Source: an uncultured bacterium (GTDB taxonomy: Bacteria; Hydrogenedentota; Hydrogenedentia; Hydrogenedentales; JAEUWI01). Taken from it: DNA of 13,534 nucleotides. A program made the position numbers. How positions within the stretch are numbered: the first letter of the stretch is position 1; every line of letters begins with the position of its first letter. Below are positions 6,001 to 9,000 of the stretch, one piece after another. Where the stretch lies: assembly GCA_963977445.1 (NCBI GenBank), contig CAXBPH010000193.1:1-13534 (forward strand), in the 5' to 3' direction.

Positions 6001-9000
6001 GGTCACCGCCCCGTCTCCTTCAACAAAATAGGCCGCCGGAGTCAGCAGGTAGACGCCAACGGGAATTACAACGATCAGTACGACCAGAGTGATGAACAGG
6101 TGTTTCATCTTGTCCACAAGCTCACGTGCCGTCATCATGTGCCCCAAATGGTTGTGCCGCCCCCCTTGGGACGGTTTTTGCATTGCCGTATTCGTGGGTC
6201 CCTGATAGTAAGTAAAAGATATCCCGTAGTCTTTTTGCAACTATCGTTTCAGACTACCCGAATCGCCAACTCCGTCCTTCCCCTGCCAGGCTCCCCCATC
6301 ACCTATTCACTTCAGGTGCCAGCGACGCTTCTGGTCTCCTTTCGATACCATAGCCCCATAACAAGGCAATCTATTGGTGTCGGTTTTTCGCGGATGAAGA
6401 GGCCTCCGCACCCCGAGTTTACTACGTAACAAACTGTCAACAAATAACTTAGCAGAAGTAGACGATTCTTGGCACGGGATTGGCTTTAAGTCCAGATGCG
6501 CAACGGAATACGGGGCGCGCGACAGTTAAAGAACGTAACGCAACGGAATGCAACAACAGCCTCGTGCAGGGGCGGAGGAAACTATTATGGCTTCTATCAA
6601 CGTAAACGATATCAACGAAGAAATGACCTTGAGCGACGAAGAAATGGTCCACGTAAAGGGTGGCCCAGCCTATATTAAGTTCGGTGATATCAAAGGCGAA
6701 GTGGCAGACTCTCGTAGGGTCCCAACGGAAAACTTCTCCCTCAATTTCGAAAAAATCCGCTACTAGATTCGCGCTACAGCGACTTCACCTTACTTGTAAA
6801 ACAACAATATATCCCGTGCAGGGATGGAGGAATTTATCATGGCTTCTATCAACGTAAACGACATCAACGAAGAAATGACCATCAGCGACGAAGAGGTTAC
6901 CAGCGTAAAAGGCGGTGCTGGCTATTTAAAGATCGGTGATATCAAAGGCGAAGTGGCGGGCTCCCGTACGATCCCGACGGAAAACTTTTCCCTCAATTAC
7001 GAAAAAATCCGCTTCTAGAACCGCATTGCGGCGACTTCAATTTACTCGTAAATCAACAATGTATCCCGTGCAGGGATGGAGGAATTTATCATGGCTTCTA
7101 TCAACGTAAACGACATCAAAGAAGAAGTGACCATCAGCGACGAAGAGATGGCCCACGTAAAGGGTGGTCCGGCCTATCTTAAATTGGGTGATATCAAAGG
7201 GGAAGTAGCGGCCCCCCGTACGGTGCCGTCGGAAAACTTCTCCCTTAATTATGAGCGAATCCGCTACTAGTAGCTCGTGACGGCCACAGACGTCGATCGC
7301 ACTGAAAATACATCTTATAAACGATCCAGGGACCGGCCGATATTCTCTGTAATCGCAGTCGGTATAAAGAGGGGTACGGGTACGTGCGACGGGAGAGAAT
7401 CCATGGCGGCGCGGTGAAAGTTCACCGCGTCGTTATTGATTTTGGATCCCGATGAACCTGGGGCATACGCCCCAGGGGCCGTGGCGGAGCAGTGCCAATA
7501 CCGTTGTCTACTTCCGCAAAGGGCAAGAGCAGGACTTCACGATTGTGACGAACCACGCTTAGTCGCCCCGCCACCATCCTGAGGGACGTCGGTGATGGCG
7601 GCGCTCTTCCCGGAGAGTCCCATACGGCGAATAGGTGAGACTCCGCATGCCGGCCACGTTGGAAATACTGCGGGCAAACTTGCGCACTTCACCATAGAAT
7701 TCCTGGACCACCACCCGCTCTTTTACTTCGCCCTCTTCCCGCACGGCCAGGAGGCGGTGCAGCGCGTAGAGGCCCAGAAAGAAGGCGAGCACAAAGAGGA
7801 AATCGAGGCCCCGTAGATTTAATGCGGGCACCGTGAGGCTCTCGCTGGGGCCCCCGATCAGGCCATAGTGTGCGACAAAACTGAATTCACGCACCGCAAA
7901 GTAATCCGCCATAAACCCGCCGCATATGGGCGCAATCGTGGCCGCTATTCCGGTCACCAATCCATTGACTGCGAGGAAGGCCGTCGCCTGACCGCGGGGT
8001 GCCGCTTTCAAGGCGATATTGCTGGAACAGAGAGCGACGCCGGCCGTGGAGATGCCGGCGAGGACGTGAATGCCCACCAGGAGCGGCAGGGTCATACTGT
8101 GGCTCTCCGGCAGGGTCGTAAAGGGCCAGAGGAGAAAGCTGATGACAAAGGCACTCCCCGACACGGACAGAACCGATTTATTGGAGAAGCGGTCCGCCAG
8201 ATTGCCCCAGAGGCGAAAAAACAGAACGTTCATAATCTGGCTCAGGACAGAGAGGGCGAGAACATAGCCCATACTCAGGCCGAGGCGACTGAGCATGTAA
8301 ACGGTGAAGAAAGGTGCGGCAAAATTAATGGCCAGATTCCACAACCCGAGAAAGGCGATGAGATTCCGAAAGTTGGCGTGCCTGAACGGGGCGGAAAGGG
8401 TTTCGTACAACCCCGACACGTGCTGGCCAGTCATTTCCGGCTCGGGGATGCGGCTGAGAAACAAGGTGCCTATGAGGCCCGCGACGCCACCGATGACGAA
8501 ATAGATGGAGTAGATACCCATCACATCACCGGTCTTATCATGATATATATCGACGGCGAAACCGGACACGAGACACAGGAACGCCCCCACGGCCGTGGAC
8601 AGGGTCATGCGCTTGGCAAAATAGCTGCCCATGATGCGCTCGGGGATAAAATCACGCATCCAGGAATTGTAGGAGCAGTTGGCGATGGCCCCAAGACCGA
8701 AATAGATGCACAAGGCCAGGAGCAGGACGGGTAGCCGACCTGCGGGTGGCACGATGAAGGGTATGGCCGCAACGAGGAACCAGGGGAGTCGGGAGGCAAT
8801 ACAACTGAGAACGACGAGCGTACGTCGTTTTCGGTAGCGCGCCACCAGATAAATGGCCGGCACCTGAATCACCTGGGAAAGGGGCTGTATGGCGGCGATG
8901 AGCCCGATTACCACATTGGACGCGCCCAGGTGAAGGGCGAAGGCCACCAGAAAGGCACCCGTGGTAAAGACGCCCATGGTCTGGGACGCGATACCATCCA

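Follow-up and report, generated by a model that had tools for sequence, protein, structure and literature searches.

The window, a 13,534-nt stretch of the genome of an uncultured Hydrogenedentota bacterium, contains a tandem array at 6563-7270 (period 252, 2.8 copies, 84% matches, TRF score 974) in which open reading frames end at 6766, 7018, and 7270, reproducing the survey's finding of three tandem 59-aa genes with a 252-bp period. Upstream alternative ATGs are present at 6548, 6824, and 7076. We favour the 59-aa starts at 6587, 6839, and 7091 because GGAGGAA lies 6 nt ahead of each and because relatives of these peptides start at the same Met. The features of the locus are as follows.

5407-7558, no strand assigned: 2.15-kb variable segment holding a 220-aa gene and the three peptide genes, missing at the syntenic site of a congener
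6470-6485, plus strand: sigma-54-type promoter box TGGCAC-N5-TGGCT (-24 GG / -12 GC spacing), 117 nt ahead of the first ATG
6574-6580, 6826-6832, 7078-7084, plus strand: Shine-Dalgarno sequences GGAGGAA, one each for genes 1-3
6587-6766, plus strand: gene 1, 59-aa precursor; leader codons 6587-6664 (26 aa, ending KGG), 33-aa core 6665-6763, stop
6839-7018, plus strand: gene 2, 59-aa precursor; leader 6839-6916, core 6917-7015
7091-7270, plus strand: gene 3, 59-aa precursor; leader 7091-7168, core 7169-7267
7403-7436, plus strand: terminator-like hairpin (15 bp) with a T-rich tail, where the three-gene transcript probably ends

Precursors 2 and 3 show 78-80% identity with copy 1, and the alignment of all three copies has 41 invariant columns out of 59. 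The three peptide genes are under purifying selection: pairwise dN/dS values among the copies were 0.34, 0.19, and 0.35 (pS 0.30-0.39), and all three have therefore been maintained as coding sequence. Domain searches of the 12 ORFs in the window detected no exporter, immunity gene, or maturase, in agreement with the survey, which had found neither a maturase nor a C39 transporter adjoining the array. An Rfam scan of the window matched no family.

A predicted sigma-54-dependent transcription unit

The box TGGCAC-N5-TGGCT was invariant when aligned with the upstream regions of three other arrays of double-glycine (GG) peptide genes, and a sigma-54 box is common to six distinct peptide arrays. 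Seven exact copies of the box occur in the 7.1-Mb genome, two of them ahead of GG-peptide genes, and rpoN was found in the host genome. A promoter scan of 6200-7600 detected no sigma-70-like sites. At the other end of the array, the region 7310-7450 has a fold energy of -53.5 kcal/mol (z -3.08). These findings suggest that the three genes likely form one transcription unit with a predicted sigma-54 promoter and a predicted terminator. We also considered the hairpin CCCGUGCAGGG ahead of each Shine-Dalgarno sequence as an element and rejected it, as its stability was no better than that of shuffled sequences (z -1.25 and +0.24).

Copy-number variation at the chromosomal site

The gap between the antiporter and MFS genes measures 2152 bp here versus 170 bp in the congener G076 (contig C51), while the congener G073 carries a single peptide copy 620 bp from the same glycosyltransferase gene. 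Three congeners thus contain 3, 1, and 0 peptide copies at this site. Two neighbours were rejected as functional partners. The 220-aa gene (5578-6240, minus strand), a candidate immunity or partner gene, has homologues in G073, G075, and G076 on contigs without the peptides. The MFS gene, a candidate dedicated exporter, has an orthologue in one of five congeners searched, where no peptide was found.

Leader and core of the precursors

The survey had described the N terminus of the precursors as a double-glycine leader. As such a leader we counted about 15-30 residues ending in Gly-Gly (or Gly-Ala/Gly-Ser) with hydrophobic residues at -4, -7, -12, and -15. The 26-aa acidic leader ends in K-G-G and has V at -4, M/V at -7, and L/I at -12, all of which bear out that description; a Glu occupies -15. 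PMC7018657 names -4, -7, -12, and -15 as the positions that are recognised, so that the leader agrees with three of the four positions named there, the -15 Glu not being hydrophobic. Judged by these residues, the window peptides carry the leader of putative double-glycine PCAT substrates. No window peptide scored above the cut-off of a curated leader or bacteriocin model; TIGR01847 matched copy 3 only (14.0 bits against a cut-off of 15.7), and TIGR04149 matched at 13.4-13.8 bits against a cut-off of 25 (E 0.04-0.05), with no match to copy 2.

The 33-aa cores are Cys free and hydrophilic, with a charge of about +1, GRAVY values of -0.35 to -0.63, and computed unmodified masses of 3861, 3688, and 3768 Da. 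Each aligns to two separate parts of an Hcp profile of 160 positions: core 1 to positions 3-17 and 115-133, core 2 to 2-15 and 116-133, and core 3 to 3-16 and 119-133. The complete Hcp domain is absent, as T6SS_HCP (PF05638) gave the window peptides 11.9 and 13.0 bits against a cut-off of 23.5. We recovered the subthreshold matches reported earlier (copy 1, E 0.29; copy 2, E 0.13; residues 45-58 to positions 113-126 of 129) and none for copy 3. A profile built from 17 peptides aligned in two separate stretches to solved Hcp chains, the best being 1y12_A (Hcp1; E 1e-4), in which query residues 30-49 matched Hcp 9-26 and residues 44-74 matched Hcp 121-153. Against 5.77e9 sequences, the same profile retrieved PF05638 proteins roughly 160 aa long (E 6e-8 to 4e-6). 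In addition, the relatives P0014, P0031, and P0069 have cores above the Pfam T6SS_HCP cut-off (24.1-26.2 bits versus 23.5). The survey's idea of a "mini-Hcp" core is thereby upheld, with two Hcp stretches matched at E 1e-4 in solved Hcp1 and at E 6e-8 among 5.8 billion proteins, and homology of the core to Hcp, as judged by profile comparison, is now statistically sound.

The proposal that the core joins the first and last strands of Hcp needed amendment. Its first half stood, in that the N-terminal strand is present. The C-terminal motif falls at 115-133 of 160 and therefore corresponds to the strand that ends the Pfam model rather than the very last strand of the protein. An AlphaFold2 monomer model computed from the 17-sequence alignment had low confidence (pLDDT 56.6, pTM 0.14) and contained no strands. 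Sequence comparison showed that the mature N terminus left by a cut after GG equals the N terminus of Planctomycetota Hcp after Met removal, and that the peptides are closer to Planctomycetota-type Hcp than to the Hcp of the host.

Builds, hosts, and relatives of the family

Repeating the profile search reproduced the 82 proteins at E<=1e-3, 47 of which are 53-78 aa long (about 50 in the earlier count). Consistent with the earlier view of an unnamed family, the source names read only "hypothetical protein" and no NCBIfam or Pfam family covers it. The build of leader, GG, and a core with a first and a last strand does exist, but it is one of several builds and accounts for 12 of 51 short matches. 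What is constant in the family is GG followed by the Hcp N-terminal strand; the tails vary and consist of other Hcp strands or of a DUF1559 pseudopilin H-X9-DG tail. P0021 and P0058 combine the Hcp N-terminal motif with DUF1559 positions 240-261, above the Pfam cut-off, with a TIGR04294 match at E 2.4e-10, and sibling peptides bear DUF1559 N-terminal cores.

The DUF1559-type cores are 74-90% identical to nearly all of their best 80 matches (55% for locus L110). True prepilins make up 73 of these best 80, and Planctomycetota are named in most of the contig titles. The eight host prepilins examined have a different motif from these cores. The fragments in the peptides thus appear to resemble Planctomycetota-type proteins and not the host's own.

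We located related loci with a degenerate DNA pattern for the GG/Hcp junction. The motif is common to Hydrogenedentota, Acidobacteriota, Desulfobacterota, and Alphaproteobacteria. Cores built from such fragments recur in four or more phyla, and across phyla the N-terminal motif hardly varies. Within the host's phylum, the family is limited to one family-level group, where 9 of 14 genomes carry it, compared with 0 of 120 elsewhere. Genomes contain two to eight scattered GG-peptide genes, which are diversified paralogues. Among viral contigs, 140 pattern matches included no relatives. Searches of the ESM Atlas gave best scores of 0.77-0.85 and thus leads only, among them a 57-aa cluster automatically named Hcp and a 53-aa cluster named "putative bacteriocin." Full-text literature searches returned no paper on Hcp-like or DUF1559-like double-glycine peptides.

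Relation of the peptides to the T6SS

As noted in the survey, a T6SS cluster with a canonical Hcp is encoded on contig C26; this Hcp is the only one of the cluster, and the array lies on another contig, outside the T6SS cluster. Five of 10 carrier genomes searched, one being an isolate genome, had no TssC (sheath) and no Hcp beyond the peptide, a count to be read with the caveat that metagenome-assembled genomes are incomplete. For this reason, the resident T6SS is probably irrelevant. Since cores made of Hcp and DUF1559 fragments are found in at least four phyla and also in T6SS-free genomes, the peptides are no by-product of the secretion system of the host itself. Judged by gene content, they appear to have neither the linkage to a T6SS nor the dependence on one that would mark an Hcp.

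A candidate exporter beside sibling peptides

The C39-peptidase ABC exporter reported on C451 was found again. It is the single PCAT of the host genome and is followed by the N-terminal part of an HlyD gene. The C-terminal HlyD part is found where C383 breaks off, and a GG peptide with a leader 54% identical over 26 residues is 49 bp away. We infer that C383 and C451 join from the complementary HlyD halves (133 + 275 aa versus 399 aa in locus L006) and not from overlapping sequence. Arranged in this way, the host layout matches that of L006: peptide, then HlyD, then a cNMP-C39-ABC gene. An exporter with its predicted membrane-fusion partner would accordingly be present in the genome beside a sibling GG peptide, with none in the window.

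A PCAT and/or HlyD gene lies within about 7 kb of family peptides at 3 of 11 loci and at 5 of 8 further loci; these loci are not independent, since a small number of related genomes supplied several of them. In all, an exporter and/or HlyD adjoins sibling peptides in nine genomes, host included, and both genes occur together in L006, L147, L149, and L153. Each of three congeners encodes exactly one PCAT (about 1050 aa). The exporters of L006, L011, L147, L149, and L153 have the order cNMP_binding, Peptidase_C39, ABC_membrane, and ABC_tran; the cNMP domain of the host exporter was not seen because the gene is cut at the contig end. The best NCBIfam model is TIGR03796 (NHLP-type exporter), matched below cut-off (513-540 bits versus 853). 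Sigma-54 activator genes adjoin the exporter locus in L007, L149, L152, and L153, and a large hybrid histidine kinase gene lies upstream in the exporter loci of L006 and L149.

Discussion

We consider the odds somewhat better than even (about 0.55) that the array consists of tandemly duplicated structural genes, in one sigma-54 unit, for PCAT-exported, Hcp-derived, unmodified effectors of the class II microcin/bacteriocin kind that would be cleaved, exported in trans, and active on other cells. In such a model, a single sigma-54-dependent transcript would be made, and each 59-aa precursor would be translated from its own ribosome-binding site. The C39 domain of the genome's single HetC-type PCAT, whose counterparts in congeners combine cNMP-binding, C39, and ABC domains and which with HlyD is predicted to lie beside a sibling GG peptide, would recognise the leader through its hydrophobic -4, -7, and -12 residues and Gly-Gly. 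A cut after G26 would then free the core outside the cell as a linear peptide of roughly 3.7-3.9 kDa that lacks Cys and is near neutral. This core would have descended from a Planctomycetota/Verrucomicrobiota-type Hcp by loss of everything between the N-terminal strand and the strand that ends the Pfam domain, and the two to eight scattered genes per genome would constitute a regulon-like set with cores pieced together from conserved segments of Hcp and DUF1559 pseudopilins. Stated most broadly, our best reading is of Hcp-descended, unmodified peptides, presumably exported in trans, that may be microcin-like or signal-like. The genes and their selection, the leader, the homology to Hcp, and the proximity of exporter genes among relatives are established by the comparisons above; cleavage, export in trans, and activity are predictions.

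Class II microcins and bacteriocins are double-glycine-leader peptides exported by a PCAT and a membrane-fusion protein, as described in PMC12219008 and PMC7018657. The window family resembles them in its Gly-Gly leader of about 26 aa with hydrophobic -4, -7, and -12 positions, in its small Cys-free core, taken as unmodified, in the C39-ABC/HlyD genes beside siblings, in having several paralogous structural genes per genome, and in its strain-to-strain variation. Unlike them, it has a sigma-54-type promoter, no immunity gene was found in the window, and the hosts are Hydrogenedentota, Acidobacteriota, and others rather than Enterobacteriaceae or Firmicutes. The cores are also hydrophilic and near neutral, unlike typical membrane-active bacteriocins, which counts against the bacteriocin reading. 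The absence of an exporter, immunity gene, or maturase from the window, scores under every curated cut-off, the Glu at -15, and the lack of a confident AlphaFold2 fold count against it as well. Finally, cores that are Hcp/DUF1559 fragments were described for no bacteriocin in our literature searches, and PMC12219008 does not contain the word "Hcp."

The same exporter could instead serve signalling, with pheromones exported by the HetC-type PCAT, sensed by their producers, and feeding back on the sigma-54 activator, as in the streptococcal com/blp systems and the proposed Nostoc HetC signal. We regard this as possible but fairly unlikely. The only PCAT with an N-terminal cNMP-binding domain to have been studied, HetC, is proposed in PMC10986499 to export a signalling peptide; the sigma-54 activator in the Hydrogenedentota exporter locus, the hybrid histidine kinase upstream in L006 and L149, and the sigma-54 promoter common to the peptide genes point the same way, and a near-invariant N-terminal motif across phyla is expected of a ligand. 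Pheromones, however, usually diverge for specificity, whereas one motif is shared here by Hydrogenedentota, Acidobacteriota, Desulfobacterota, and Alphaproteobacteria; the diversified paralogues in each genome and the copy-number variation among congeners fit effectors better, and the window array has no linked sensor gene. A doubtful though specific alternative concerns the target: exported cores might bind unfinished Planctomycetota-type Hcp or DUF1559 pseudopilin subunits or rings in competitors and cap or poison polymerisation of the tube or pseudopilus. The cores do draw solely on the terminal segments that are best conserved in two polymer-forming families, with P0021 and P0058 as chimeras of both, and their N terminus after GG would equal that of Planctomycetota Hcp minus Met. 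The DUF1559-type cores are closest to mostly Planctomycetota-titled prepilins, the host's eight examined prepilins differ, its Hcp is less similar to the peptides, and the partner is probably not the host's own because half of the carrier genomes searched lacked both TssC and Hcp. Against such mimicry, Hcp is cytoplasmic and an uptake route would therefore be required, the copied segments sit inside the Hcp monomer fold, AlphaFold2 shows no autonomous fold, and the likeness to Planctomycetota proteins may merely record the origin of the family.

That the peptides are RiPP precursors, with enzymes encoded elsewhere in the genome and an active product other than the linear core, strikes us as improbable. 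A SAM-dependent methyltransferase gene adjoins the peptide gene in L013, L017, L020, L148, and L154, an ORF beside the L006 PCAT weakly matches TIGR04500, "putative peptide maturation system protein" (E 3.8e-13, below cut-off), and the weak leader matches to TIGR04149 are to an rSAM-modified RiPP family. The methyltransferase link is nevertheless limited to those 5 of 19 loci, the cores lack Cys, and no maturase family was detected among the 12 window ORFs or in the Hydrogenedentota exporter loci. Least probable of all is that the peptides regulate the resident T6SS from the cytoplasm, serve it as spare parts, or are functionless, decaying hcp remnants. In favour, the genome encodes a T6SS and one Hcp, and hcp genes are sigma-54 controlled in several bacteria. 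On the other side, the array lies outside the T6SS cluster, the peptides occur in genomes without TssC or another Hcp and are closer to a foreign Hcp type than to the host's own, and purifying selection, conserved leaders, and Shine-Dalgarno sites speak against decay.

The family's relation to Hcp/TssD is confined to the first approximately 15 and last approximately 19 residues of the core, homologous by profile comparison to Hcp 3-17 and 115-133. Unlike Hcp/TssD, the peptides lack about 100 residues of the fold, score below the Pfam cut-off, carry an export leader, lie outside the T6SS cluster, occur in T6SS-free genomes, and have no predicted fold. Like NHLP/Nif11-type precursor families, they are associated with a related exporter (TIGR03796/TIGR03794 being top or near-top NCBIfam matches). 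NHLP/Nif11-type precursors have sequence borrowed from a protein family, the leader being the borrowed part and the cores being modified; in the present family, by contrast, it is the core that is borrowed, and this lineage shows no linked maturase. The exporters of L006, L011, L147, L149, and L153 share the N-terminal cNMP-binding build of HetC of Nostoc PCC 7120. No GG-peptide gene lies near hetC and its substrate is treated as an open question in PMC10986499, whereas candidate substrates adjoin the exporters here.

Double-glycine peptides and their exporters are already well known. The use of conserved fragments of two unrelated fibre-forming proteins as cores, sometimes spliced in one peptide, appears to be undescribed. 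A long shot is that these peptides represent a new class of secreted "subunit-mimic" peptides from non-Planctomycetota bacteria, an anti-weapon or anti-fibre bacteriocin acting by molecular mimicry of Hcp and DUF1559. If subunit mimicry were true, it would be a natural means of interfering with T6SS or pilus assembly. If the peptides instead served as signals, HetC-type cNMP-regulated exporters would gain their first candidate substrates. Either way, linear peptides of 33 residues can be synthesised and offer a concrete and cheap experimental handle on the family.

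Three tandem genes encode peptides with a double-glycine-type leader

The tandem three-gene arrangement with a 252-nt period reported in the survey's finding was reproduced by the ORF listing and by TRF, which gave one array at 6563-7270 (period 252, 2.8 copies, 84% matches). The genes and the signals around them lie as follows.

6470-6485, + strand: sigma-54-type box TGGCACGGGATTGGCT, GG-N10-GC spacing, 117 nt 5' of the first ATG
6587-6766, + strand: gene 1, start of the 59-aa frame to ORF end
6839-7018, + strand: gene 2, start of the 59-aa frame to ORF end
7091-7270, + strand: gene 3, start of the 59-aa frame to ORF end
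7403-7436, + strand: terminator-like 15-bp hairpin with T-rich tail (fold of 7310-7450, z -3.08)

GGAGGAA stands 6 nt before each 59-aa start, and relatives share the start Met of these frames. The peptides are 78-80% identical to copy 1, with 41 of 59 columns invariant across the three copies, and the spacers between the genes (72 nt) are 85% identical. Pairwise dN/dS values were 0.34, 0.19, and 0.35 at a synonymous divergence of 0.30-0.39. By these measures, the array is an old tandem triplication in which each copy has been kept as a protein. We also observed an element, (C)CGTGCAGGG, directly 5' of each Shine-Dalgarno sequence (6559-6573, 6811-6825, and 7063-7077), which alignment of upstream regions showed to be kept before arrays in other genomes; it could form a 5- to 6-bp hairpin, with no excess stability over shuffled sequence.

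The leader (residues 1-26) is acidic, with a charge of about -5, and ends in K-G-G, with V at -4, M/V at -7, L/I at -12, and Glu at -15. According to passages of PMC7018657, the peptidase domain of PCATs, the C39 peptidase-containing ABC exporters, recognizes Gly-Gly plus positions -4, -7, -12, and -15, three or four of which are conserved in double-glycine (GG) leaders. TIGR01847 scored below its cut-off (copy 3, 14.0 bits versus 15.7) and TIGR04149 was weak (E 0.04-0.05), so that the curated models were grazed and the double-glycine label follows from anatomy and company instead of from a profile cut-off. We conclude that the genes are real, are under selection, and carry a double-glycine-type leader. 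Acidobacteriota versions (L151:909-1178, L147:5232-5462, and L148:6263-6538, all - strand) carry extended leaders in which K-G-G occurs twice; in L151, it is the second site that precedes the Hcp N-terminal motif.

Cores are homologous to two separated parts of Hcp

The sub-threshold T6SS_HCP matches described for the peptides recurred for two copies (copy 1, E 0.29; copy 2, E 0.13; both with residues 45-58 aligned to profile positions 113-126 of 129), with no Pfam T6SS_HCP match for copy 3, and the profile search of 1.84 billion representatives again returned 82 proteins at E<=1e-3. An alignment of 17 two-motif peptides matched 15 PDB sequences at E<=10, eight of them Hcp by depositor names. 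The best was 1y12_A (P. aeruginosa Hcp1, PA0085; E 1e-4), matched twice: once with query 30-49 on residues 9-26, and again with query 44-74 on residues 121-153. Against 5.77 billion proteins, this alignment found 296 at E<=1e-3, headed by about 55 peptides of 49-93 aa without a Pfam domain and followed, from E 6e-8 on, by ~160-aa PF05638 proteins. Examples named 'type VI secretion system tube protein Hcp' came from Planctomycetia, Planctomycetota, Planctomyces sp., Novipirellula aureliae, Thalassomonas, and Shewanella.

On a 160-position Hcp profile built from 45 full-length (~160-aa) proteins of this search, the window cores aligned at 3-17 and 115-133 (copy 1), 2-15 and 116-133 (copy 2), and 3-16 and 119-133 (copy 3), with ~100 Hcp residues missing between the two pieces and 27 more Hcp positions after the second. 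Comparison of the sequences shows the cores to be homologous to two separated Hcp parts. The earlier description of the core as the first plus the last Hcp strand is correct for the N-terminal strand; the second piece corresponds to the strand at the Pfam model's end, and Hcp itself has a later final strand. The host's own Hcp (contig C26) is less similar to the peptides at both its N terminus and its C-terminal strand. AlphaFold2 on the 17-peptide alignment gave pLDDT 56.6, pTM 0.14, and zero strands, a model that does not predict autonomous folding of the core.

The cores of the family combine Hcp and DUF1559 segments

Among the 82 profile matches, 51 are <=110 aa, and in 47 of these our own expressions placed the Hcp N-terminal motif within five residues after Gly-Gly. 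Only the start is so uniform: the two-strand build proposed for the family occurs in 12 of the 51, beside other tails that make the family wider.

Table. Tails among the 51 short matches.
Hcp C-terminal-strand motif: 12
Hcp second strand: 6
D(I/V)TLK(R/K)G ending: 4
GGGGAGK loop: 2
H-X9-DG: 2
More than one N-motif copy: 2 by expression; by eye, repeats in P0026, P0028, P0039, and P0078

These readings were borne out by Pfam on relatives. Three (P0014, P0031, and P0069) match T6SS_HCP positions 1-31 over the cut-off (24.1-26.2 bits versus 23.5), and two (P0021 and P0058) continue from the Hcp N motif into DUF1559 (PF07596) positions 240-261, over cut-off, and match TIGR04294 (H-X9-DG; E 2.4e-10). 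P0055, found via its leader alone, has a core that corresponds to DUF1559 positions 1-28 (E 1.2e-10). A leader-based inventory of the genus gave cores joining the Hcp N motif to various Hcp C-terminal pieces or to H-X9-DG, inner Hcp strands alone (L049; positions 88-110 of the 160-position profile), and DUF1559 N-terminal segments, some of them ending in a GDGSVR tail (L050 and L051). The window's own genome has seven GG-peptide genes of such kinds.

Table. GG-peptide genes of the window's genome.
Window array, genes 1-3: Hcp N and C pieces
Contig C2: Hcp N motif only
Contig C171: Hcp positions 97-117
Contigs C4 and C383: DUF1559-type cores

The segments resemble proteins of another phylum. 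Nearly all of the 80 best among 587 relatives share 74-90% identity with a DUF1559-type core over ~33 residues (the exception, L110, has 55% over a longer stretch). Of these 80, 73 are genuine prepilins with FTLIELL... upstream, and most titles are Planctomycetota, chiefly Gemmataceae, with some other taxa. The host has 38 DUF1559 matches, and the eight host prepilin N termini that we read have ILLPALARAREAARR, versus LLLPAVQKVREAA in the peptides. Planctomycetota Hcp begins M-P-A-Y-(M/I)-K-L-G-D-I-K-G-E or M-A-G-Y-..., so that a peptide cut as predicted after GG would have the N terminus of those Hcp proteins minus Met. By such likeness, the copied Hcp and DUF1559 sequences are of foreign type, and alignment shows the family cores to be collages of Planctomycetota-type Hcp and DUF1559 segments.

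Nine larger proteins (P0001, P0005, P0010, P0012, P0017, P0023, P0032, P0072, and P0078) contain 2 to 15 tandem ~10-residue Hcp N motifs alone, so that this motif serves as a free-standing repeat unit outside Hcp; several of these proteins have N termini that look like signal peptides by eye. Six full-length Hcp-like proteins of 174-210 aa (P0049, P0052, P0056, P0063, P0071, and P0081) have, by eye, an apparent Sec-type signal peptide followed directly by (A)(A/G)Y-x-K-x-GDIKGE, which implies that Hcp-like proteins are exported. For P0049, the full-length proteins most closely related to it come mostly from Pirellula, other Planctomycetota, and Verrucomicrobiota MAGs.

The family is independent of a resident T6SS

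Candidatus Hydrogenedentota MAGs hold the closest relatives of the window peptides, and looser ones occur in Acidobacteriota, in four Alphaproteobacteria, and in one Desulfobacteraceae MAG. A search of 185,579 species genomes with a strict DNA pattern of the KGG-(P/A)(A/G)Y-x-K-x-GDIKGE junction gave 15 loci: 11 in Hydrogenedentota (two of them on one 7.9-Mb chromosome, placed in the phylum by the survey of its genomes), four in Acidobacteriota, and none in Planctomycetota. Among 241 million metagenome records, six stretches matched. Within the phylum, 10 of 135 genomes carry matches (2-8 each), all in one family-level group: 9 of its 14 members are positive plus this genome, as are 7 of 8 in the genus, against 0 of 120 elsewhere.

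TssC (PF05943) was found in 5 of 10 carrier genomes searched, four from Hydrogenedentota and one Falsiroseomonas. It was not found in the other five (Desulfobacteraceae, Acidobacteriota, Parasphingorhabdus, alphaproteobacterial MAGs, and the Parasphingopyxis marina isolate), whose T6SS_HCP matches are the peptide genes with no other Hcp, absences to be read with the caveat that four of these genomes are MAGs and may be incomplete. The isolate genome speaks against any need for a resident T6SS, and we conclude that the family is independent of one.

The array itself is accessory, as judged from synteny. The congener G076 keeps the glycosyltransferase, antiporter, and MFS genes in synteny, with an antiporter-MFS gap of 170 bp versus 2152 bp in the window; another congener, G073, has a single peptide gene 620 bp from the same glycosyltransferase gene. 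A 220-aa gene in the extra segment was considered as a peptide partner and rejected, as in three congeners it lies away from peptide genes.

Arrays share a sigma-54-type promoter

The box TGGCACGGGATTGGCT is invariant upstream of four unlinked arrays (the window, the genome's own C171, and two other MAGs) and lies 113-380 nt 5' of the first gene in six distinct arrays. It occurs <=700 nt from 16 of the 38 peptide genes that a leader expression found in 25 loci, and some of these loci duplicate each other. Exact TGGCAC-N5-TGGCT is present only seven times in the 7.1-Mb genome, two of them preceding GG-peptide genes. The genome encodes rpoN, and a promoter scan of 6200-7600 gave no sigma-70-like site. 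Motif conservation shows a sigma-54-type promoter to be common to GG-peptide arrays, and the hairpin at 7403-7436 is the likely transcript end.

Family peptides are repeatedly linked to a HetC-type exporter

As the survey's finding stated, no C39 exporter adjoins the array, and the whole window has none: domain annotation of its ORFs gave a GT2-DUF2064-GT2 fusion, a K+/H+ antiporter, the 220-aa unknown, an MFS transporter, two unknowns, and a MATE transporter. The 678-aa fusion (1116-3152, - strand) passes both 'arsenosugar biosynthesis glycosyltransferase' models (TIGR04283, 279 versus 182 bits; TIGR04282, 205 versus 134 bits). Between the MFS and LolA-like genes, a second tandem repeat (9235-9823, period 262, 2.3 copies, 86% matches) has no consistent ORF and has related copies at 77-87% identity on contigs C165 (five matches) and C183, indicating a dispersed non-coding repeat family.

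The C39-ABC exporter reported on the 2.5-kb contig C451 was confirmed as one of three C39 matches in the genome and as its only PCAT; the others lie within an RHS-repeat protein and in a 290-aa stand-alone protein. The RHS-repeat protein (contig C275; L028:4393-9069, - strand) carries a C39 peptidase domain at its N terminus; it is at least 1559 aa long, and congener versions have 2323 and 6570 aa. On C451, the first 133 residues of an HlyD protein, the membrane-fusion partner, are encoded after the exporter gene. On C383, the last 275 HlyD residues run off the contig end 49 bp from a GG-peptide gene with a DUF1559-like core (4162-4359). These pieces reproduce the order at the related locus L006, where a peptide gene, HlyD (399 aa), and a cNMP_binding/C39/ABC protein (1034 aa) are consecutive, and we infer that the two contigs abut. 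Three congeners each have exactly one such ~1050-aa exporter.

A PCAT and/or HlyD gene lies beside family peptides in 3 of 11 loci (L006, L007, and L011) and in 5 of 8 further loci (L147, L148, L149, L152, and L153), with neither beside the peptides in L150, L151, and L154. These loci come partly from the same genomes; by genome, the count is nine, this one included. Near peptides in L010 and L020, small cNMP-binding proteins match TIGR03896 ('bacteriocin-type transport-associated protein') below cut-off. Family peptides are repeatedly linked to a HetC-type PCAT/HlyD pair. HetC of Nostoc, the studied protein of the same cNMP-C39-ABC build, is a proposed exporter of a signal, and no GG-peptide gene lies near hetC (PMC10986499), whereas family peptides lie beside exporters of this build.

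At L006, the PCAT gene is flanked, on its far side from HlyD, by a 347-aa ORF (14916-15956, - strand) with a weak resemblance to TIGR04500 ('putative peptide maturation system protein'; E 3.8e-13, 49 bits versus a cut-off of 180); L149 and L153 have ORFs without a Pfam match that are similar in size and position. A SAM-dependent methyltransferase gene adjoins the peptide at L013:10198-11550, L017:8877-10106, L020:10433-11824, L148:6612-7244, and L154:6527-7252 (three alphaproteobacterial, one Blastocatellia, and one Hydrogenedentota locus), with a MethyTransf_Reg domain also in L013 and L020. Such a methyltransferase may tailor the peptides of those lineages.

A secreted effector is the favored interpretation

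No Pfam or NCBIfam family covers the window peptides, and source names of relatives read only 'hypothetical protein'. A full-text literature search found nothing on Hcp-like or DUF1559-like double-glycine peptides, and the class II microcin paper PMC12219008 has no occurrence of 'Hcp' or 'Planctomycet'.

Five readings of the peptides were ranked. The last place goes to a function in the resident T6SS or to decay, set against a family that is independent of such a system and window copies under selection. A modified product of the RiPP type stands fourth; methyltransferase genes beside the peptide in 5 of 19 loci speak for it, but the window lacks an adjacent one. In a bolder idea, ranked third, the peptides would imitate the building blocks of Planctomycetota-type Hcp tubes and pseudopili, the two structures whose proteins the cores resemble. 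A function as a signal, ranked second, is the closest competitor.

We place first a secreted effector of the microcin kind, a reading suggested by the many diversified paralogues, the variation in copy number, and the regulon-like promoter, which resembles the streptococcal blp arrangement. As such an effector, each window peptide would lose its leader by cleavage after G26, and the 33-mer would be exported in trans by the C451/C383 system and would act unmodified.
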